From Flectonema sp. DT1601 (lineage: Eukaryota), in assembly GCA_964019425.1 (NCBI GenBank), contig OZ025786.1, positions 434,001 through 498,000 of the forward strand: DNA of 64,000 bases. The letters run 5' to 3'. The notes beneath the pieces were generated by a model that ran no database searches, was not told the DNA's origin, and saw nothing but the letters and a program-made list of their open reading frames with translations. The first letter of the stretch is position 1; each line of letters starts with the position of its first letter. Below, one piece after another: positions 4,862 through 60,688 of this stretch. Made by a program: the position numbers and the translations under genes.

Positions 4862-5260
4862 CACAAATACACTACCGTGTGATGGTTTCCACCATTGTGC
4901 CTCTCAGACTATGAGGTGCACTGAATAGTAGTTTTTACTTGCGGTTAGTCGTTTTGATTTCCGTAACCGCCATTTAGTTCTTTTGATTATTCTGGAATCA
5001 GTTTTGTATTCAGAAGTGAAGCTTAAAAAAAAATAGCATTACCCCCACAAACTTCTTGTTGAATAAACAAATTAAAAAAAAAAAAAAAACGCTTCGATTT
5101 TTTTTTTTTTTTTGCCTAATATCTCTTATTAATTTCCCACTTTAACAAACTTAACGTCTTAAAGGGCGCAGCAGTTGTTGATTTGTTATTTTTGTTATCA
5201 ATTCTTTTTTTTTTTTTTCCCCATCCAGACTATACTCATATCTCCCCTACATCAATAAAT

Positions 5261-7092
5261 ATGAGCGACCTTCCCACTGTTAATGAAGACATCCAAACAG
5301 ACTACACACAAATAGGAACAGTGTATGCTGCTTGTTTAGCTGTTGTTAAAGTAGTTTATTTACATTACACGCTTAGCTCGTTAGAGATTCAGGAACGATG
5401 GAAAATTGAGATGGTTGAAGAAGAGCAACGAGCTATCATATTAGCTCAGGTTGGGGGAAGGGTTGAAAATGAAATAATTAATATTCGTATGAAGTCAGAA
5501 ACAGCTCCTCTACTTGTAAATATCCCTCCTAGTGATAGCAACCTGTTATTCAGATTGGTCTATTCTTCAGCAGCAGCAGCGACATTAGCAGAGGCTGTTC
5601 CTACAATTAGTTCACTGTCTGCCAGCTATAACTCGAAGCATAATTTGTCTAGTCATTTGTTGTTCACTTCTCCGTTTTTATTTCAGGTTCTTGAAGGTCC
5701 ATTTTTTGAGTTAGAATCTGTTTGGCCAAAAATATATTTCAATCGACACCATCACAACGTCAGTCTCATCTCCTGTACTCATTGCAAGAAGCGAGTCTTT
5801 CGTGAAAGAGGTTTAAGAATCACCACTATTCATCCATGTAGTGGATTGAAAGGTACAACTATATTAGGCTTGTTCCAGACTCTTGGTCACGTATGCTGTT
5901 TTTTATTTTCAATTTTGTGAGAAATTAGTAGAACATAATAACAAACAGATAACTATGACATCAATGGTATATGATGGGTTTTATCAAAGTGACAAAAATA
6001 GAAACAGAGTGATCACTGATGACGTTATTGAAGATAAGGAAGTCACAACACAATCAGGAAAACACGTTCAGATTATCGCATTGGTGTTTAGTGTTGTTGA
6101 TGATGAATGTAGAGAAGAAATATCGTCAACTCTGAGTGGTATTTTACAAACTTCTTGGGTTAATGATCTGCAAGAAATCTTTTCCAGCAGAGATCGAATT
6201 GTCTTCGCGACTCCCGTTTCCACCAATGCTGTTGATTTAGCTGTTTTTTTGACCGAAGAAATAAACACTCGTCACTCAGGGGCAACCTGTTCTTTTGGGA
6301 TAGCTTCCGGAAACATCTACTCATGCATTCGTAAAACATGTATTTCATCTCATTCCTATATTGGTAAACCCATTAATGATGCAATTTGGGAAGCATTTAA
6401 TAAAATGTCACTACCGCAGTTCTCAAATTTAAATATCAGAGACAGTCCTTACGAGTTTGACTTTCCACAAGATGCCCTAGTTCAATTGATTTACACAGGT
6501 ATGTTATGATATGTATCTGTTGTAATAATTACTGTCCCCCCATCATCCAGGTTTGGCCGAACTCTATATTCGTTTTAGCCAGTTTCAAGTTGCTTTATGT
6601 TTAATCACAGTATCAAGTTGCCCCCCATCATACTAAAATAGGTATACCCAAAGACCTAACCACCGTAGCTGGTAGCGTTAGATTAATAATTTCACAAGTG
6701 TCTAGTGAGGTATTTGATAAAATGATAATCATAGGATCACAAAAATGTAATATCCTTCTTCACGTAATGGAAGGAACGTACAGTGATCTCGGAAGTATAT
6801 TTGCAACCCTTCAATCGCCTAATTCTATTTTAAAACATTGTTGGCTGTCTTCTATTTCAAATATAACAGACAGGACACTTGACGATGATGTTTCACCGCT
6901 GCAGGTGTGTAATTTTGAGGGAAGAATTTTTTTTTGTACCTACAAACCCATTGTTCGGTAGAAAGAGAATTGTGGCAGCGTAACTACCTATTCCTTTATT
7001 AGGATTTTCTACCGGTTGCGCACAAACAAAATAAAAGTGTGAGTTAGTAAGTAAAAAGTGAAGTTTGCCGATTCTTTTTTTTTTTTTTTTAA

Positions 7093-47874: not shown

Positions 47875-47945
47875 CATTTACTCTGAGACTTGCATGGCTT
47901 AATCCTTGAAACAAGCATATGACTATTGGCAGGATCAACCAAGTT
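47875..47945 (-). pseudogene. SSU (18S) rRNA 5'-end fragment
   Basis: Reverse complement AACTTGGTTGATCCTGCCAATAGTCATATGCTTGTTTCAAGGATTAAGCCATGCAAGTCTCAG is the conserved eukaryotic 18S 5' terminus. Confidence 0.93.
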
Positions 47946-48060
47946 TCTTGTTACTCTAACCAACAGGGAGTACCCGAAAGTTGAAAGCATCAAGACGCTG
48001 GTTGAGAAGGTAATTAAGTTATCGAGAATCGTTCTTTCGGTACCAATTTGGTGATGTGAA

Positions 48061-48146
48061 TTCTTATTTAATATTTGAATTTAATATGTGACCCCCCCCT
48101 CTGTTCTTATTTAATATTTCAATTTAATATGTGACCCCCCCCTCTG
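48061..48146 (+). repeat. Two tandem 43-bp units at the 5' boundary of the retroelement
   Basis: ttcttatttaatattt(g/c)aatttaatatgtgacccccccctctg x2, one mismatch. Confidence 0.92.
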
Positions 48147-48158
48147 AATAAAAAAACA

Positions 48159-51100
48159 TTGGAAGTAGGGCGAAGACATCGACGTATCAGGGAACCTGTC
48201 GACCTTGATTCGGACGAAACAGGAGTAATCTATGCACTCATAGATGAAAAAGGTTCCGCAAGATATGTCGGACAAACCTCCAACACCGCATCACACAGAG
48301 AACGTGGGCATTGGTACTCCCGTCACTCAAAGGGAACAACCATCTCCAAGTTCATTAGAAAAAGAGGAAGTCCTCTATTCGCAGCAACACTGGAAAAAGT
48401 GAACATCTGCAGCAGTTTAATGAAAACTGCATTTCGTACAGCAGCAAATCCGGCAGAATCGTTTTGGATACAGCATCTAAATCCACAAACGAATATGTTC
48501 AGAATGCCAAATAAGGCATATGTCGGAAAGCCACTAAAGACGGGAAGTGAAGTACAAAACCGGAGAATACCGGAAAAACGAGAACCGTCAATCCCAAAAA
48601 AGTGGTATCATTTGGAAGGAGACACTCTGATAGTAGATACTGAACCAGGTAAATACGTTGGTATCAGAAAACAAATACAGAGCCTGATCGACTTACCAAA
48701 GATCAATGAGGATGCTATAGCCAAGTGGTCAATTAATAGAACTCAAAGGTTGCTAGCATGGATCATCGACCATATCCAAGCGTCTCATCAAGAAATTGAT
48801 ATCATCAGTCAGATAATCTTAGCACTTAAAGATAGATTATCAGACAAGAAAAAAGATACAGAGACGAAAAGGATATCAAAACTCGGATCAACATGGCTTA
48901 AAATTCGGTTTGTACACCCTTTGATTGAGAAATTGGATCTCAAAAGGGTATTCACATGCAAACAGGCGTTACTCCTCGCCAAAGACCGAGCAGAAATACT
49001 TCCGACAATGAAAGTGTCAAGATACTTGACAACTAAGTTGGAGGATGTGCTATGTGACCGTGCCAATGATAGTTCAACAGACAACGCACAAGAAGAACTA
49101 TGTGATCCTGAGACATGTAAATGTCATGTATTCATAAAGAAAGAATACAGAGAAGAAGAAAAACATGTGATCACACACTCATCAAAGCTGAATATATCCA
49201 ACAGACTTAAGATGTTATTATCGAGAGGTGCTAGATATAGACTCTTTGAGGATCCGAAAACTGTCACGGAGGAAGTAATGTACGCTATAGATGAATACAT
49301 CATGCATTACTTCCCAGATGAGAAATACGAACCTCTATGTATTTTTTTAAAAAAAGCGGCAAAAAATCAAATCGGAAAGCTACCGCAGATGGATGTTATT
49401 GATGAATTCAAACAAGTACAGAAGGAACTGAAGGAAATTAAAAAACATTTGATTTTTACCAGAATCGACAAAACGACACACGATCTGGCAGTATGTTGTA
49501 AGAAATACTACAACACAAAACTAAACGAGCACATCGGTAACAGAATTGTGTACGCAGAGGTTCCGAAAGATCAGATAAATCCAACGATGAAAAGGATCGA
49601 AGACATCAACAAGAAACATGGTTTCAGAAATACGGAAAATTTGCCATATTTATATGGAAATCCGAAGATGCATAAAGACCCTCCGAAGTTTAGATTCATA
49701 GCTGGAACTTCGAACAAAACACTGGATGTCAAATACATCAACTCTAAGGTAATGCCTGCGCCCTTCACAGCCACAACAGACATGTCAAAGGAAATGTCTG
49801 GGATACTTAAGACTTTCATGGAAATAGTTAAAAAAGCTGAAAAAGTGGAATACGAAACAACGAATATAAGAAAGTATTTTATAATTCAGAATGTAGATGA
49901 AGTTGCACAGTACATCAAAAGCAACTACTCAACTCTCCAACAAATGAAGGTAAAGACATATGATTTCTCAGATATGTACACGAACCTCCCCCATGATAAG
50001 ATTAAAAAAGTTATCAACGAATTAATCAGCAAGTACATGGACGGGCAGATAATGGTTAGAGACAAAAGAAGTGGAATTGGTAAAGACTTTTACCTTGACA
50101 AAAGCTACGATAAAGATGTTCAAGTAGCATACGAAGAGAGCAAAGTTAAAGAACTACTCAGCACGATTCTATCTAATGCTTACATTAAGAATGGAGAACT
50201 TATGCTCAAACAAAGCCATGGTATACCGATGGGTTCTCAATGCTCACCACATATTGCGAACTTATACTGCTTTGGCATTGAAAAACAATGGGTGGAAAAC
50301 GTCATTTCACAGAAAGGTATTGGGGCAGCGATAAATAACAAAATCATATTCAGATACATTGATGATTTTTTAATTTTCAGCCACAATGACCCAAGCCCAC
50401 CACCGAGTGAGATGTATAAAATGTCATATACAGATACATCAATGGGCAACAACGATGTAGTATTCCTTGGGATGAGAATCCGGTTGGAAGAAAGGCCGAG
50501 AGGACACCCGTTCGTACGACTTTCAATATGGGATAAAGAAAATCTGTTTAATTTCCAACCCATTAAGTATACCAGTTCGGAATCCAACGCACCGAAAAGC
50601 CTAGGACCAGGTATTCTAAAAGGTGCCATGTACAGAGCCGCTACTAATATCAATAACGATTTCGACTTATACCTTGAAATTGAGAAAGTGCTATACCGTC
50701 TGAGAAGTCGCGGATACTCGAAAAACAGTCTGTTCCCCCAATATAAAGACTTTGTACTGGGTACATACTGGGATTTCCCAAAACAAAGGGAAAGTCTTCA
50801 TCATCATTTCTTTGAAATCAATCGGAAATATGACAACGGAAGACCAGTATCGAAAGAAAAACAGACAATCCAACAACATTATAAAGTCAATGGAAGGGAT
50901 GACATTTATAATATGCTGTTGGACAAGAGAATTGGATATGCGAAATTAAGGAGGAATGACAACACATTGGTGACATCATTTAAAATTGCCAGTCAAGCGA
51001 TTATTAAAAACAAGAAGGAATGTCAGCAATGCAAAGCTATAATCTCTGACGACACTGAATCACTGGTCAATGATATCAACATTAAATATCACACTGGAAT

Positions 51101-54020
51101 ATTCAAAACAGCAAAATTCTACAAGGAATTTAAAGAGATATTGCCTATCAATGTCAGTATCCTTTCATACAAAAAGGGTATAACAACTCGAGTAGTAGTC
51201 AACAAAGATAACAATCACGAATGTCACATGTTGATCGGATGTACGGAAGGTGGATTTTTCTTTCCAATTACAGCAAGATACACGGAAAAGGAAATTCAAA
51301 GTCAGCTACTCGAAAAGAAGGATCCAGAAAAATCCGATATCGCTGACAACACGTCGAAAGACTTGAAAGTAGTACAAAAGGAGCAGAAGTCAGAAGAGTC
51401 TGGAAAAACTGAAGTACCAAACGATGATTATTGGTCCACCTTCATTGATAATAAATTCCCTATTACGATGCACACGCAACCAGCAGAAGGACTTCGTAGT
51501 GGGGAATGTGGCTGGGCAACTGTTAACTTCATAGCAGATCACCTCAAAACTGAAAGAATCAGAATATCGAAGATGTTTAAGATTCAATTCCGACTCGCAG
51601 AGCAAGAGCTTAAGTTAATTGGAGAGAACTTGATGTTCTCATTTAACCCAGATGGTTGGTTTCATCAGATAGTTATTTATGAAACAATAAGAATATATCT
51701 GGGACTAGAAGTAACACATGTGACAACCCATGAACAGCTGAAAACAATCACAGTAGGTCCAACAGAACAAGAAACTATTGTCATTCCATACATCATAGTG
51801 TCACGTAGAGCAGCCTACACACATTACATCGTCTTTATTGATATAAATTCTAAATACAAGGGATTTGATATAATCAATCCAACTCCAGATTGTAATGGGA
51901 TAGAAGATATCATGACGAAGTATCCGTTGAAGGAATACGAATACCACGTTGTAATGAAAACAACGAAAGATATTCCTCCAATAGACTTGTCTGCACTGGC
52001 AATAACAGAGTCACCAGCAAAGGATAATTCCACAACAAAAACTACAGAAGTGGAAATTAAAAAATTCACGGACGAGGAGGATGTAACAGATCTTGAGACA
52101 ATGATTTCGGCAATCGAAAAAGCGGACAAAATGAAGCCCAAATCGACACCGGGAAAAGTCAATAAGATAGAGATAAGGGCCGTATCACCACCAAAGATAT
52201 GCCAGGATAATATACCGACCCTGTACATATCGCCGATGGTGAAGATACCACCATTACCAGTACTACTATCACCAGTGTTACCAAGACCATCAATAATTCC
52301 AATGACAATACCAATAACGATACCGAAGATAATAAAAATGGAACCTTCGGTAATGCAAAAAATTATATCGCTACCATCAAATAGTTTTCAGAAGACGCTA
52401 GTCACTGTAAATAATGCACTTACGGTAGCCCCACCAGCAATCCCGACATTGATGCCAGCAACGATTTCAAAGGTATCACAATTGGCACCGCCGACTGTAC
52501 TTCAAAAGAAGACACAAGTCATTGCAAATGATGAACTCACACAGGTCCCGCCGATAATTCCAACAATGATACCAACACCAATTACAAATTTATCACAATC
52601 GACACCGTCAATTGTACTTCAAAAGAATACACAAGTCAGTGCGAGTGATGCACTTACACAGGCCCCGCCGATAATTCCAACGCTGATGCCAGCAAGGATT
52701 TCAAAAATATCACAATTAGCACCGCCGACTGTAATTCAGAAGAAGACACAAGTTATTGCAAATGAGACACCTACAATGGCCCCACCTGCAATCCCAACGT
52801 TGATGCCAGCAACGATCTCAAAGGTATCACAATTGGAACCTCCAACTGTACATCAAAGTGTGATTCAATCTATGAAAACGATACAATTACCGATTGTATC
52901 ACCATTGGATCTGGATCATAATGATGTGGATATGATCGATATGCCGTCACCAGCAACAGTACAACTGGATACGGACACTGACATGGTAATGGAAACTATG
53001 TCACCAGAGACGCAGGAATCACCGGAGCATAGATATGCTGGCGTAATGACTCCATCCAAAGACAGGATGGAGTCACCACCAATAACTCCGATTAAGATTA
53101 AGACTCCACTGAAAATAAAGACGCCTCTGAAGATCGAAACTCCGACTAAAATAATTCCACAAACCCAACAAGCATGTTGGGATGGAAAGAACCTCGAATT
53201 AATACGAAGTTTGTCAAAAGAAAGACAGTTGGAGAAAATAGTCACCACATACAGACTAAGATCAACTACACCACAAACAGTAGCCAGGAAGATGGAAACA
53301 CCACCTACTGTAAGCAGTAAAGCCACGAATTCCGGAACAACAATACCGATTACACCACAAAAGGTATCAAGAGTACTAACATACACAGATACAGAGAATA
53401 TCGGTAAAACTTGCAAATATTGCAATAAATCCTGGAAGTCATTTATTGACCATATCAATAAATGTGGAATATTCAGAGCATCAAAAGAATATCCAACATA
53501 TGTTGATGAAGATGATAACACTTCATTTACGGTCACTGAATACAAAACGGATCCTCGAAATAGTATTGTAACTGTTACAAAAGATGAGACAGAAACTCAT
53601 ATGTTATCTATCAAAAAGAATGGCAAGTTGGCAACACAAACGGTCGCTGATGAACCAGAGAGAAGCAGTAACAAGAGACTGAACTCACAGAGTCCAATGC
53701 GAATTGTGAGAATCAAAAAATACCTGAGCAACCGGAAAAGGCTTAAAAATGAGTGTACTGAACATAAGTTGGCACAGAAAATGAAACTTAAAGAAGTACA
53801 AAAACAGAAATTAGCAAAGGGAAAGGAAAAGAAGAAACTGAAATTGGTAAAAAGACTCAACTCGCAGAGTCCAATGAGACCGATGCTCAGAAGAAATACT
53901 CGAAAGAAAAGAAGCAAACAAGATGAACATGATTCTTCAGATGATATGAGTATTTCACAGAGATCTTCAACTCCAGATATCCCTGATGCTAAGGAACAAT
54001 TATCAGACTTTGATAATTAA
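48159..54020 (+). CDS. PLE polyprotein: GIY-YIG endonuclease - RT - Josephin-like protease - 39-aa repeats - C2HC zinc finger
   Basis: GIY-YIG: VIY..YVGQT..R..H..E..N. RT: LSRGARYR, DK, YGNPKMHK..RFI, YDFSDMYTNLPH, GIPMGSQCSPHIANLY, RYIDD, FLG. Protease triad C1117/H1222/D1237. Zinc finger CKYC..H...C. The start codon is uncertain. Confidence 0.92.
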   Translation: MEVGRRHRRIREPVDLDSDETGVIYALIDEKGSARYVGQTSNTASHRERGHWYSRHSKGTTISKFIRKRGSPLFAATLEKVNICSSLMKTAFRTAANPAESFWIQHLNPQTNMFRMPNKAYVGKPLKTGSEVQNRRIPEKREPSIPKKWYHLEGDTLIVDTEPGKYVGIRKQIQSLIDLPKINEDAIAKWSINRTQRLLAWIIDHIQASHQEIDIISQIILALKDRLSDKKKDTETKRISKLGSTWLKIRFVHPLIEKLDLKRVFTCKQALLLAKDRAEILPTMKVSRYLTTKLEDVLCDRANDSSTDNAQEELCDPETCKCHVFIKKEYREEEKHVITHSSKLNISNRLKMLLSRGARYRLFEDPKTVTEEVMYAIDEYIMHYFPDEKYEPLCIFLKKAAKNQIGKLPQMDVIDEFKQVQKELKEIKKHLIFTRIDKTTHDLAVCCKKYYNTKLNEHIGNRIVYAEVPKDQINPTMKRIEDINKKHGFRNTENLPYLYGNPKMHKDPPKFRFIAGTSNKTLDVKYINSKVMPAPFTATTDMSKEMSGILKTFMEIVKKAEKVEYETTNIRKYFIIQNVDEVAQYIKSNYSTLQQMKVKTYDFSDMYTNLPHDKIKKVINELISKYMDGQIMVRDKRSGIGKDFYLDKSYDKDVQVAYEESKVKELLSTILSNAYIKNGELMLKQSHGIPMGSQCSPHIANLYCFGIEKQWVENVISQKGIGAAINNKIIFRYIDDFLIFSHNDPSPPPSEMYKMSYTDTSMGNNDVVFLGMRIRLEERPRGHPFVRLSIWDKENLFNFQPIKYTSSESNAPKSLGPGILKGAMYRAATNINNDFDLYLEIEKVLYRLRSRGYSKNSLFPQYKDFVLGTYWDFPKQRESLHHHFFEINRKYDNGRPVSKEKQTIQQHYKVNGRDDIYNMLLDKRIGYAKLRRNDNTLVTSFKIASQAIIKNKKECQQCKAIISDDTESLVNDINIKYHTGIFKTAKFYKEFKEILPINVSILSYKKGITTRVVVNKDNNHECHMLIGCTEGGFFFPITARYTEKEIQSQLLEKKDPEKSDIADNTSKDLKVVQKEQKSEESGKTEVPNDDYWSTFIDNKFPITMHTQPAEGLRSGECGWATVNFIADHLKTERIRISKMFKIQFRLAEQELKLIGENLMFSFNPDGWFHQIVIYETIRIYLGLEVTHVTTHEQLKTITVGPTEQETIVIPYIIVSRRAAYTHYIVFIDINSKYKGFDIINPTPDCNGIEDIMTKYPLKEYEYHVVMKTTKDIPPIDLSALAITESPAKDNSTTKTTEVEIKKFTDEEDVTDLETMISAIEKADKMKPKSTPGKVNKIEIRAVSPPKICQDNIPTLYISPMVKIPPLPVLLSPVLPRPSIIPMTIPITIPKIIKMEPSVMQKIISLPSNSFQKTLVTVNNALTVAPPAIPTLMPATISKVSQLAPPTVLQKKTQVIANDELTQVPPIIPTMIPTPITNLSQSTPSIVLQKNTQVSASDALTQAPPIIPTLMPARISKISQLAPPTVIQKKTQVIANETPTMAPPAIPTLMPATISKVSQLEPPTVHQSVIQSMKTIQLPIVSPLDLDHNDVDMIDMPSPATVQLDTDTDMVMETMSPETQESPEHRYAGVMTPSKDRMESPPITPIKIKTPLKIKTPLKIETPTKIIPQTQQACWDGKNLELIRSLSKERQLEKIVTTYRLRSTTPQTVARKMETPPTVSSKATNSGTTIPITPQKVSRVLTYTDTENIGKTCKYCNKSWKSFIDHINKCGIFRASKEYPTYVDEDDNTSFTVTEYKTDPRNSIVTVTKDETETHMLSIKKNGKLATQTVADEPERSSNKRLNSQSPMRIVRIKKYLSNRKRLKNECTEHKLAQKMKLKEVQKQKLAKGKEKKKLKLVKRLNSQSPMRPMLRRNTRKKRSKQDEHDSSDDMSISQRSSTPDIPDAKEQLSDFDN

Positions 54021-54180
54021 AAACACTTTCTACATTTATTGTAGAAAAGTGCTCCACTAGTAGTGAGCTACGAACTAGTAACAGCAAAAAATATGTTTTT
54101 TTTATTTATGAACATGAAACACAAAGTAACTACATTCCAGTCCTGCAAACTGGAATGACTCAGTCTCAACATTTGACTGA

Positions 54181-54247
54181 CTTACTTCTACACCATACTG
54201 ATGAGAGAGAATAGAGGTAAGAGGTATATGGATTACTCTCGAAACCT
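54181..54247 (+). ncRNA. Hammerhead ribozyme, non-circularly permuted (predicted)
   Basis: CUGAUGA 54198-54204, GAAA 54241-54244 and GUA cleavage triplet 54224-54226. Stems ccaua/uaugg, gagag/cucuc and aggu/accu, plus an extra 10-bp helix cuuacuucua/uagagguaag. Confidence 0.75.
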
Positions 54248-54540
54248 ATAGTTACTTTAATATGCTAAGTTGCGCATCACCCTTAGTCACTGTATTTAAA
54301 ACTAATGTTAAATTATCTTTATGTTTTTATGATACAACACAGTTGTAATTTTTACAAAATCGAACATACAACCCCCCCTCTGTTCTTCAATCTTCAAAGG
54401 AGCATTTCTGAATATGTTCAGAATGCTTATTATGTTTAGTTTTCTTTTTTGTTCAAAGTTTACGTTCGTTGCTTTCAAGTTAATTTGCCTACTAAGACTA
54501 CTTCACTTTTTAATAATCAGTTTTTTTTATAGAACTCTGC

Positions 54541-56432: not shown

Positions 56433-56749
56433 ATAGAAGTTACATGTAGTGCCGCTATTATACTTCATTGGATCGACATCTAACAGGGACTGTTAACCTA
56501 AAGGTCTCTTATGATTAACGCGTCAACACTCAGAATCTCAACAGAGAGTGAGCAGAGAGAATTATTACAATTCAAAAAAAAAAAAAAATTAAAAAATGGA
56601 AACCAACCTTTAAAACATAATTTCATCTCTAGGGCACTACGAACACAAATAGAATGCGGCGGTTTGAGTATTGGAATGCACATTAATTTTGAAACTGAAT
56701 GGTACTTTTTTTTTTTTGCTAACTAATTACTCGACAGAAATAACAAGAA

Positions 56750-58906
56750 ATGCCTCATAAAGCCTCTACCGTGAGCAAGAAGCCTTCAGCAAAGGGAAAT
56801 GCTAAGAAAAAACCTTTAACGAAGTCACAGGTGGCTCTCAACTCGCTTAAGAAGGGTGTTGCAACAACAACAAGAGATGTAGACCAATTGTCTTCGACTA
56901 TCAAAAATTCATCTGAGGTAGTACTAAATGACACAAACAACATTAAGAAAACTTTAGAAGAAAACATGAAATTGATGAGGGACCAGTTAACTGAATTCCG
57001 CAGAGAATTAGTAACCAGCGTTCCGTTGCCGTCATTCAAGAATGAGATCGGAACTCCAGGTGGTAATGTACTTTTCGATAAAATATTACACGACTTCTCA
57101 ATTATTGGTCCGACTGAGTCATTTACTGGATTCGTCTTCAACGATTTGGGTAATCACTTGCTGACACCTGATGTCCCAAGAGTTGAACCTTCTCCACACT
57201 GGACACCTCCTGCTGACCCTACATATGAATCAGTCAGACGTATGCACAACCGTAGATTTGATTTCCGTCCTTGGGTTATTGTCTGTCCAAAGTCAACGGA
57301 AGAGGTATCGTGGTGTGTAAAGTTAGCAAAGGTGCTCAACAGAAAGATTCGCATCCGTGCTGGAGCTCACGATCACGCTGGTGAGTCCAACGCAACTGAT
57401 GCACTTCTCATCGATTGCACTGCACTTCGTGAATCTACTTACAAGAAGATTGATGAGAAAGGAGGTGAGCTCACTATTGGAACCGGATGGAAGTTTATTG
57501 AATTGTTTAGAAAACTCGGTGAGCAACCAGATACAAAAGATATCCAACTAGCATTCCCTCACGGAACTTGTCAAAGTGTTGGTGTTGCTGGGTACTTACT
57601 AGGAGGAGGTTGGGGACCATACACTCGTCAACATGGAATGTGTTGTGAAAGTCTGGTAGCAGCAACGGTCGTTCTTGGAGACGGAACTATCGTAAAACTC
57701 AGAGACGGACCAACAGCAAATCCAGCAGACCAACAGCGTAACGACGACCTCCTCTTTGCCCTCCGTGGTGGTGGTGGTCCCAGCTACGGAGTTGTGACAT
57801 CGATGACTATAAAATGTTTCAGCATTGCTTCAACACATAATTACACATTCTCAGTTCATTGGAATGCACCTGACATCAAACCGACTGAACCACATGCGAA
57901 GACTTTGAATGTGGTGAAGCGTTGGCAAAACCTCCTCGTTGAGGACACTCCAGGGCTGACAGGTACCAACCTTCAGATTACGGCAAAGTATGTTGAGAAA
58001 CCAGACTTCAATGACCCAGCTCAGGGTAAGGATTCTGAATTAGAATGTCAGTTCTATGGATACCTTCAGTCTGTTACTCCTTATGATGATGACTCTTTCG
58101 CAGTACTTGTAAACTCTTGGTTTCCTGACGCACCACCATGTGATATTGAACTTCACAGAATAGACGGAATGGTAACTCAGTTATTCTCAACTCAGTTATT
58201 CTCAAACTGGGCTAGACAAGGACGGAACTGTAAGAGAGGTCATTTAGCCGATGCTAAAAGACGTTTAGCTGAATCACTGAAGAACATGGATAACAAATTT
58301 ACGATGCTAAAGAACCCTGCCACTGGTGGTGACGAATGGCCTATTCAAGTGGAATACCTTCTTGAAGAAGACCGTCCAGATCCGCACATGATCACCAGTA
58401 GAATGGCAAAGGAGCCAACAGGACTGACTGATGAACAGTTTGAGTTCTTTATTCACACTCTTCACAGTGAGTTACTCCCAACTCCTGAAGATCATGCAGC
58501 AGCTACAAAGGATCCAGTCATGGGAAGAAACCCAGTAGCTACTTATTGTAACTTTAATGGTATCGCTGGACCGTTTTATAGAAATCCTGCTAAATTGGAG
58601 GAAAGTAAGAAACGTTGTTCATTCCCTTACCAAAACAGTTGTTATGTGATTCAGTATCAGGCTTGGTGGGAGGCATCCGCCGTTGATAATCAACGTCTTC
58701 ACAACAGAGCAATGGACTGGATTCAGATTAACTCTCACAGGAAATGGGAATGTGGTGGTGTTGAGGGATCATTTATCTCGTTCAAAAATTCTGAAATTCC
58801 AGAGGAAGATTACTTCCAAGGAAACTACAACAGACTAATTGACATTAAGAAGAAGTGGTCAAAGGATCCAACCAACATCCTCAGATCCCGCAGGTCTATT
58901 ATTTAG
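56750..58906 (+). CDS. FAD-linked oxidase, berberine-bridge-enzyme/VAO family
   Basis: IRAGAHDHAGES (FAD-attachment His motif), HGTCQSVGVAGYLLGGGWG, LRGGGGPSYGVVT, and C-terminal YFQGNYNRLIDIKKKWSKDPTNI. Confidence 0.9.
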   Translation: MPHKASTVSKKPSAKGNAKKKPLTKSQVALNSLKKGVATTTRDVDQLSSTIKNSSEVVLNDTNNIKKTLEENMKLMRDQLTEFRRELVTSVPLPSFKNEIGTPGGNVLFDKILHDFSIIGPTESFTGFVFNDLGNHLLTPDVPRVEPSPHWTPPADPTYESVRRMHNRRFDFRPWVIVCPKSTEEVSWCVKLAKVLNRKIRIRAGAHDHAGESNATDALLIDCTALRESTYKKIDEKGGELTIGTGWKFIELFRKLGEQPDTKDIQLAFPHGTCQSVGVAGYLLGGGWGPYTRQHGMCCESLVAATVVLGDGTIVKLRDGPTANPADQQRNDDLLFALRGGGGPSYGVVTSMTIKCFSIASTHNYTFSVHWNAPDIKPTEPHAKTLNVVKRWQNLLVEDTPGLTGTNLQITAKYVEKPDFNDPAQGKDSELECQFYGYLQSVTPYDDDSFAVLVNSWFPDAPPCDIELHRIDGMVTQLFSTQLFSNWARQGRNCKRGHLADAKRRLAESLKNMDNKFTMLKNPATGGDEWPIQVEYLLEEDRPDPHMITSRMAKEPTGLTDEQFEFFIHTLHSELLPTPEDHAAATKDPVMGRNPVATYCNFNGIAGPFYRNPAKLEESKKRCSFPYQNSCYVIQYQAWWEASAVDNQRLHNRAMDWIQINSHRKWECGGVEGSFISFKNSEIPEEDYFQGNYNRLIDIKKKWSKDPTNILRSRRSII

Positions 58907-59752
58907 GTTTTCCCCCCTTCTATTTTATTGCAATAAAATGGTTTATTGCATTGAAATCCCCTCCTATCTCTTGTAGATTGCATAGTGGTAAAATTATGCT
59001 TTCCTTTCCTTCCATAAGTGATAGGTTTCTAACCCAGTACAAGTCAATTGTCTCGGATTAACCCCTTTCATCAAAAAAAAAAAAAAAAAAAAAAAAAAGA
59101 AAGAACGAACGAACGAAAAAAAAAAAATTAACAACCTAACGAAACCTTTCCCCATACCTGATGATCTTATTGTGTATCACAGAATCACGTCTTTCCCCCG
59201 TGAATTCCCTGTTTTTACTTTTCAAAAAAAGGAGGAGTTGAATTGTTGTTTATGTTCAGTAAAAAAAAAATAAGAATTATAAATTTTTTCCTTCATTTTT
59301 TTTTTTTCCTGTATTAAATACAGGTCAGTAAAAAAAAAAGAATGTTTACAACTACTTAACAGTCCTTATCTTTTCCTCTCTTTTTATTTTCCTTTTTTTG
59401 CACCCTCCTGAGTGACTCTGCAGCAAAAAAGTAAGATAAAACAAAACAAAAACAAAAAAAAACCATAAAATCGAAAGAGAGCATTCGGTAACACTAATTT
59501 TTTTTGTTAAGCTGAGCTCTCTGCAGAATAGAAAGAAAAGAAAAAAAAAAAAAAAAAAAATTGTTCACAAAAAAAGATATGCTTCAGCTGTAACAACAGC
59601 TAGACAATATCGACACAACCATACTATGAGAAATAACAGTGTGACAATAAACCGTTCGACTACCGAAAACAGAACTCATTCTGTCTTCCTTCAATATTGA
59701 TAACAGTGAATGTTATTATTATTTACTTCAAACACAACAGTTATCTTTAGAC

Positions 59753-60688
59753 ATGCATTCCTATGACTCAGACGAACGAGTAAAAAGAAGGGATGTTGCT
59801 GAGGATACCCTCGACTGCATTAAAAAAGGTAAATGTGGAGAGCACCCAATCACCAACAACACTGCTAAAAGTTGGGTTTGGATTGAAGGGGAGGACTGTC
59901 CTGTGTTAGGTAACTCAACAGGTGGCAAACCATCTCCGCCTCCGACTTATAAAATTTATGAAGCAACTACTCTCTCTGTCTCAGAACGTTATCGAGATAC
60001 TCCCCATTTGGGGGTTTTGAATTTCGCCTCTGCAAGGAATCCAGGTGGAGGCTTCCACACTGGTGCAAATGCGCAAGAAGAAAGCTTGGCTCGAAGTACA
60101 AGTATGTCACGTTTTAATGAATTAATAGTACATCATTTATGATGGTTTCATTGGTTGTTTATAATATAAAACTAAAAAACTATTCAAACAGCCCTCTTTC
60201 CATGTCTTGAGCAGTTTGAGAATGAGATGTACGCACCTAACTGGGAGGCAAGAAGTGGGTTTTACAGCCACACGATGATCTGCAGTCCGGATGTTTGTTT
60301 CTTTAAAAGTGATGATGGCAATCTAATCGATCCTTACTCTGCAACTGTTGTCTCGTCTCCAGCACCAAATGTTGGAGTGCTGACACGGAAAAGAGGAAGG
60401 ACGTCATCTGGAAATCGAATGATTAACGGAATCTTAAAAGAAAGGATAAGAAGAATATTACATTGCTTTTCCGTAACAGGATCTCGTACTCTAATTCTCG
60501 GAGCCTGGGGATGTGGAGTCTTCGGAAACGACTCTGCCATGGTCGCTGCTCTCTTCGCTCAAGAAATTCTGAAACCAGAATTTAACGGAGCGTTCGATAA
60601 AGTTATATTTGCCATCATTGATAATAAGATTTGTGATGTGTTTGACAAGTCTCTGAGTGACAATGGTCTTACGAAGTGTTCTAAATAA
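59753..60688 (+). CDS. Microbial-type poly(ADP-ribose) glycohydrolase (TIGR02452/DUF2263 macrodomain); intron 60102-60191
   Basis: LNFASARNPGGGFHTGANAQEESLARST catalytic signature and ILGAWGCGVFGN. Confidence 0.9.

Follow-up and report, generated by a model that had tools for sequence, protein, structure and literature searches.

The window analyzed here, i.e. the whole 64,000-nucleotide stretch of DNA, contains host genes encoding a BLUF domain protein (5120-5920), a berberine-bridge-like FAD oxidase (56744-58906), and a microbial-type PARG (59651-60688), and a host splicing factor that is, among the named matches, 51% identical to that of Diplonema papillatum and 37% to that of Euglena gracilis, which makes a diplonemid-like euglenozoan the likely host. 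A 57-bp inverted repeat (91%) is present at 28373-28429 and 29497-29553, its arms 1,067 nt apart, and possibly marks the two termini of a MITE or other DNA transposon. Our analysis was centered on a Penelope-like retroelement (PLE) and on a hammerhead-like motif located downstream of its ORF. Their coordinates, together with those of a further 3'-end copy that lacks the ORF, are given in Table 1.

Table 1. Features of the retroelement, of the motif in its 3' UTR, and of the second 3'-end copy (window coordinates).
Feature	Positions	Strand	Basis and remarks
5' junction: 43-bp tandem duplication, each unit closing with a C-run plus TCTG	48060..48146	+	Sequence
Uninterrupted 1,961-codon ORF of the likely Chlamys-like PLE	48135..54020	+	Counted between stops; the earliest Met, aa 96, follows the GIY-YIG words
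N-terminal GIY-YIG endonuclease (VIYAL...YVGQT)	48225..48485	+	PF01541, E 0.0027, 18.4 bits, under the 22.6 cut-off
CxC motif, CKC at aa 328	49116..49124	+	Motif reading
RT core, RVT_1 aa 565-751, YIDD at 50355	49827..50387	+	E 1.9e-7
Putative type-CSG hammerhead motif, whole	54181..54247	+	Sequence check, descriptor, fold enumeration
P0 (fourth helix), 5' strand	54181..54190	+	Pairs with 54212-54221 (10 bp, one G-U); nested-ensemble pair probabilities 0.92-1.0
P0, 3' strand	54212..54221	+	Sequence check
Block C: stem I 5' strand, CUGAUGA, stem II 5' strand	54193..54209	+	Sequence check
Block S: stem III strand, GUA triplet, stem I 3' strand	54222..54231	+	Predicted cut 54226/54227, by analogy with CSG-1/2
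Block G: stem II 3' strand, GAAA, stem III strand	54236..54247	+	Sequence check
Stem I	54193-54197 / 54227-54231	+	5 bp
Stem II	54205-54209 / 54236-54240	+	5 bp
Stem III	54222-54225 / 54244-54247	+	4 bp, including A15.1-U16.1
Core residues: CUGAUGA; GUA triplet; GAA	54198-54204; 54224-54226; 54241-54243	+	
Element 3' end in a C-run	54372..54382	+	Contigs of two runs diverge from the window at 54377
Second, ORF-less 3'-end copy (copy B) with a decayed CSG motif	36373..36549	+	87% over 142 nt

The host retroelement and its ends

In the long ORF, the GIY-YIG endonuclease is N-terminal to the RT, a CxC motif lies between the two, and a DK motif is present (DKT at aa 445). The endonuclease has no CCHH motif or Zn-finger linker, unlike that of Naiad elements: no Cys occurs in the first 91 aa, only one in the first 140 aa, and none between the GIY and YIG words. 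C-runs are found at both ends of the element, in keeping with (C)n or (CA)n repeats as its target. Craig et al. (2021, PMC8557442) list C-run insertion, a long C-terminal extension with tandem repeats, and the CxC and DK motifs as features of the Chlamys group, so that our element shares with this group the order of endonuclease and RT, the CxC motif, a DK motif without a fixed third residue, the missing CCHH motif, the insertion into C-runs, and the long C-terminal extension bearing tandem repeats. Placed by these motifs, the element is likely a Chlamys-like, N-terminal EN+ PLE, although its host is diplonemid-like, whereas "euglen" and "diplonem" both occur 0 times in that paper. Nine protein relatives of the ORF were found, the best of them 75% identical, while the protein-based locus search revealed none in viral or metagenome contigs.

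The C-run plus TCTG of the 3' end is found again at 48135-48146 and might be a target-site duplication. No upstream repeat of the 3' UTR (pLTR) is present at this copy. A single head-to-tail joint was seen in a public sequencing run, X1, in which the sequence proceeds from 54377 through 14 nt to 54262 and thereby repeats the last 116 nt, that is, only sequence located 3' of the putative ribozyme.

Several other properties of the ORF and its vicinity are worth recording. There is no ATG ahead of the GIY-YIG words (48135-48420), which may reflect 5'-truncation, splicing, or a non-AUG start; several Naiads are also listed without a start codon in PMC8557442. The Pro/Thr-rich tail of the ORF contains four in-frame 117-bp tandem units that are 76-83% alike (52390-52857). 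Pfam gave no match in aa 906-1322 or aa 1690-1961, and the C-terminal extension at aa 1110-1310 (51460-52070) has Cys and His residues spaced in a way that recalls a papain-like protease (Cys...His), with atlas scores of just 0.82-0.83 and one cluster with 19% OTU, which is a lead only. At the same place, relatives of the protein carry a UCH domain (P0002) or a Josephin domain (P0004). Finally, about 190 nt upstream of the ORF, an antisense fragment (47880-47946 on the minus strand, possibly extending to 48004) resembles the 5' end of 18S rRNA; its Rfam SSU match has an E of 0.14, and many contigs of three runs align at 47880-47946, one of them through 48004. It could stem from pre-rRNA that was copied in inverted orientation when the element inserted, or it could be the remnant of an rDNA target.

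Architecture and classification of the 3' UTR motif

The motif begins 160 nt past the stop codon of the PLE ORF and lies about 130 nt 5' of the element's 3' end, i.e. in the 3' UTR, where the first-pass annotation had placed it. A letter-by-letter check confirmed the four helices and the intact CUGAUGA, GAAA, and GUA core at 54181..54247 of the plus strand, so that all the core residues and stems I-III claimed by that annotation, as well as the extra 10-bp helix it had proposed, are where it had put them. Stems I, II, and III mutually cross each other and P0 crosses stems I and II, as determined by fold enumeration. The helices are short and AU-rich, and the duplex energies of stems I-III range from -2.5 to -4.9 kcal/mol.

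Eckert et al. (2023, PMC10085705) distinguished three blocks of the hammerhead, C, G, and S, and gave names to six orders of them. When all block orders and cleavage triplets were enumerated within 54050-54380, C-S-G was the sole order in which every stem reached 2 bp or more, in line with the non-circular strand order described in the annotation, whereas the circular orders (CGS, GSC, SCG) of canonical types I, II, and III do not describe the motif. The annotation had also predicted that standard type I/II/III searches would miss it, and indeed Rfam gave no match to the motif, neither at the gathering score nor at E<=10.

According to the same report, type CSG comprises five sequences, two of them unique (CSG-1 and CSG-2), which came from soil metagenome DNA with no known host or element and are cleaved in vitro at the predicted site at rates of 0.004 and 0.026 per min; its authors termed the support for this type's biological relevance weaker. 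The earlier assertion that non-circular permutations have been reported only rarely thus holds as far as rarity is concerned, but the order in question had already been named. Our motif and CSG-1/2 have in common the C-S-G order, short linkers, a length of 66-67 nt, all core residues, and a 5' helix that pairs with the segment between stems II and III. They differ in the length of P0 (10 bp versus 8 bp in CSG-1/2) and of stem III (4 bp versus 5 bp), in the triplet (GUA versus GUC), and in their stem sequences, which are unrelated; furthermore, the present motif is located inside a PLE on a eukaryotic chromosome, whereas CSG-1/2 are known from soil metagenome DNA. From the published descriptor we expect that it would miss the present copy, since the linker is 11-12 nt long versus a limit of 10, and only three pairs are formed beyond A15.1-U16.1 versus a minimum of four. 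The motif has CUGAnGA, GAAA, and a UH cleavage site, core-adjoining stems I-III in C-S-G order, and a fourth helix linking stems I and II at their distal ends in the position drawn in Supplementary Fig. 10 of PMC10085705. Judged by these sequence features, the fold is a further member of the rare type-CSG class and not a new topology.

Related copies and wider distribution

Copy B does not form the fold even with relaxed stems, as an internal deletion and indels break it; a T-run follows. It has an extra A before CUGAUGA that was also seen in one contig of a second public run, X2, and because of this recurrence we suppose that ribozyme-dead copies may still spread. Contigs from X1 with an intact motif and copy-B-type flanks exist as well, which suggests a non-autonomous or sister subfamily. 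The public runs were compared as contigs with small word shares (0.05-0.07) and are silent on RNA ends and habitat. An X2 contig covering 53961-54325 has 18 differing letters and two indels, and neither the 13 letters listed nor the indels fall inside 54181-54247; by itself, such conservation is weak (p 0.035-0.11). An X1 contig covering 54131-54248 has four listed flank changes, four unlisted ones, and a U inserted after CUGAUGA, and another is identical over 54219-54248 and then continues into a copy-B-type flank. An extra U at this position is permitted by the descriptors of Eckert et al. (PMC10085705). Related copies thus seem to retain the motif while their flanks drift, the X2 contig being weak evidence when taken alone. 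No compensatory change in the stems was found among the copies of this PLE family in the X1 and X2 contigs and the window.

The first-pass annotation had stated that PLEs typically carry hammerheads. This generalization does not extend to the clade with an N-terminal endonuclease, since in PMC8557442 Naiad and Chlamys elements are reported without canonical hammerheads, apart from type I in Chara and spike-moss families, whereas the present element has a CSG motif. The same source flags non-fitting cores, some with halves 35-50 nt apart, and the core halves of our motif are separated by 36 nt. We read by eye the consensi in the supplement of Craig et al. at places with core words (54 of 62 for ctgatga, all 23 for ctgacga, all 25 for ctgagga, and 40 of 43 for ctgaaga); parts 15 and 16 were read whole, and word matches broken by line ends escape this approach. 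In seven of the eight nematode Naiad consensi (File S5), a full CSG fold including P0 was recognized close to the 3' end, namely in Nbra-1 (a name reached by elimination), Nbra-2, Nbra-3, Hcon, Hpol, Asuum, and one Pristionchus family out of two, the Hpol fold having come from the reading of part 15 and not from a word match. The stem sequences differ among the seven, and at least Nbra-1, Hcon, and Asuum have no HHR flag in the table of Craig et al. These Naiads share with our element the fold and its place near the 3' end, but differ from it in having a CCHH endonuclease, a DKA motif, a length of 3.4-4.4 kb, and (TA)n targets, and their stems are longer and more G-C-rich. In the Chlamys consensi (File S6), no CSG fold was seen at the core-word places that were read by eye.

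A pattern scan combined with the descriptor was also applied to other collections. Among the matches listed, two of 116 metagenome loci have a CSG fold with P0, i.e. L170 (minus strand 402-500, P0 of 12 bp) and L202 (620-700, P0 of 7 bp, stem III of 3 bp). Both form the same four helices as the present motif with different sequences, a resemblance that need not imply homology, and no RT was found near either within the contigs of about 1 kb. Among the matches listed, a CSG fold with a P0 of 7 bp or more was absent from all 371 viral and all 120 prokaryote-genome loci. One viral locus, L339, with a CSG core and a P0 of only 4 bp, was rejected as a chance occurrence.

Predicted cleavage, its possible role, and alternative readings

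Taken together, we consider it likely that the 3' UTR of this Chlamys-like PLE contains a type-CSG hammerhead that cleaves the element RNA after A54226. In the mechanism we propose, the P0 hairpin would form first and stem III (pair probability of about 0.8) would stack on it, after which stems I and II would close as pseudoknots to give the usual hammerhead core. By hammerhead chemistry and the example of CSG-1/2, the cut is expected 3' of A54226, so that the upstream fragment would end in a 2',3'-cyclic phosphate and the downstream fragment would start with a 5'-OH. Self-cleavage at this site is, in our estimation, highly probable, with the slowness of CSG-1/2 and the short, AU-rich helices of the present motif speaking against it. 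As regards a role in the processing of element transcripts, we see the case as evenly balanced. The element is on the same strand as the flanking long host ORFs, transcription in such hosts is polycistronic, and the ribozyme might process read-through or tandem transcripts of the element.

The first 21 nt of the predicted 3' product contribute a strand to each of the stems I, II, and III. Because the cut would fall in the middle block, this product would be held by three helices (14 bp), and therefore the RNA would be nicked, not released. The canonical type I hammerheads of PLEs (Penelope/Poseidon, Neptune, and Hydra) have the catalytic core and the location in the 3' UTR or pLTR in common with the present motif, but they have a circular C-G-S order and a core without a pseudoknot, and their 3' product is held by stem I alone.

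That the catalytic residues are intact both here and, as read by eye, in the seven nematode Naiads suggests that catalysis, and not shape alone, has been under selection. This speaks against a reading that we regard as unlikely, in which the fold is real and cleavage-competent, but a passenger or protein-assisted and mostly silent, with transposition proceeding from uncleaved RNA and the knot perhaps serving chiefly to bind the element's protein. Such a reading has a precedent in the green anole PLE, whose insertion in vitro did not depend on hammerhead cleavage, a reaction that required the element protein (Frangieh et al. 2024, PMC11167929). It can further point to the change that decayed copy B shares with another contig, to the algal Chlamys consensi, which show no CSG fold at the places read, and to the genomic copies, which pass unbroken through the cut site to 54377. 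The last observation, i.e. DNA copies that cross the site and end 150 nt farther on, also fits an RNA that is nicked and clamped, or re-ligated, as in the mechanism preferred here.

Among PLE hammerheads, the minimal ones whose stem III has a tiny loop are active as dimers. Their occurrence in File S2 of Craig et al. (PMC8557442) would be in favor of the motif functioning solely when two tandem copies dimerize, or else as a canonical type I hammerhead that cuts after GUU 54251-54253; both appear highly improbable to us, since P0 is an intramolecular scaffold, the bases directly after 54247 vary between copies, and at the GUU site stem I cannot form, only the CSG order passing.

As to chance, the CSG descriptor, which was composed after the motif had been seen, gave a single match across both strands of the 64-kb window, even with 3-bp stems allowed. 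In 4,330 approximate dinucleotide shuffles of the window, 12 CSG cores with stems of at least 4 bp appeared, of which two had a P0 of 7 bp or more and none had one of 9 bp or more. A chance arrangement of short motifs in AT-rich DNA is hence scarcely credible, as P0 of at least 9 bp and all three stems did not occur together in any shuffle and the layout agrees with a published and tested class (PMC10085705), even though core words alone are common (six in the window versus 8.4 expected) and the nested-fold energy is ordinary (z -0.24), the latter being expected for a motif with multiple pseudoknots.

A connection between type CSG and PLEs was not found in the open-licence PMC literature or on bioRxiv, where Eckert et al. 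were the only match for type-CSG hammerheads; passages of two texts from 2026, a retrozyme preprint and an NAR paper, likewise do not draw it. What appears to be new is the context, i.e. a CSG motif in a Chlamys-like PLE on a eukaryotic chromosome. Type CSG had been a weakly supported orphan among the non-circular permutations, with two unique sequences, no organism, and no role. Its presence at the tail of a retrotransposon with an intact ORF provides a biological home as well as many natural variants for studies of covariation, kinetics, and structure, revises the statement that PLEs with an N-terminal endonuclease lack hammerheads, and would account for some of the unexplained "HHR_core/half_core" flags of Craig et al. 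It also makes the function of PLE hammerheads testable, by comparing the release-type wiring of type I with the predicted clamp-type wiring of CSG. A broader proposal, which we put forward as possible but doubtful, is that non-circular hammerheads might be the standard 3'-end ribozyme in much of Naiad/Chlamys, from diplonemids to nematodes, and the source of the orphan CSG RNAs, the clamp being selected for nicking and re-ligation that would yield unit-length RNA circles as templates for reverse transcription.

A different arrangement was noticed by eye in about ten further Naiad consensi of File S5, namely those of Beroe, one Clytia, three Acropora, two in part 12, one in part 19, and two Octopus. 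In these, the 5' strand of stem II is detached and located upstream of blocks S and G, with CUGAnGA coming last, so that the three-block assumption of Eckert et al. is broken.
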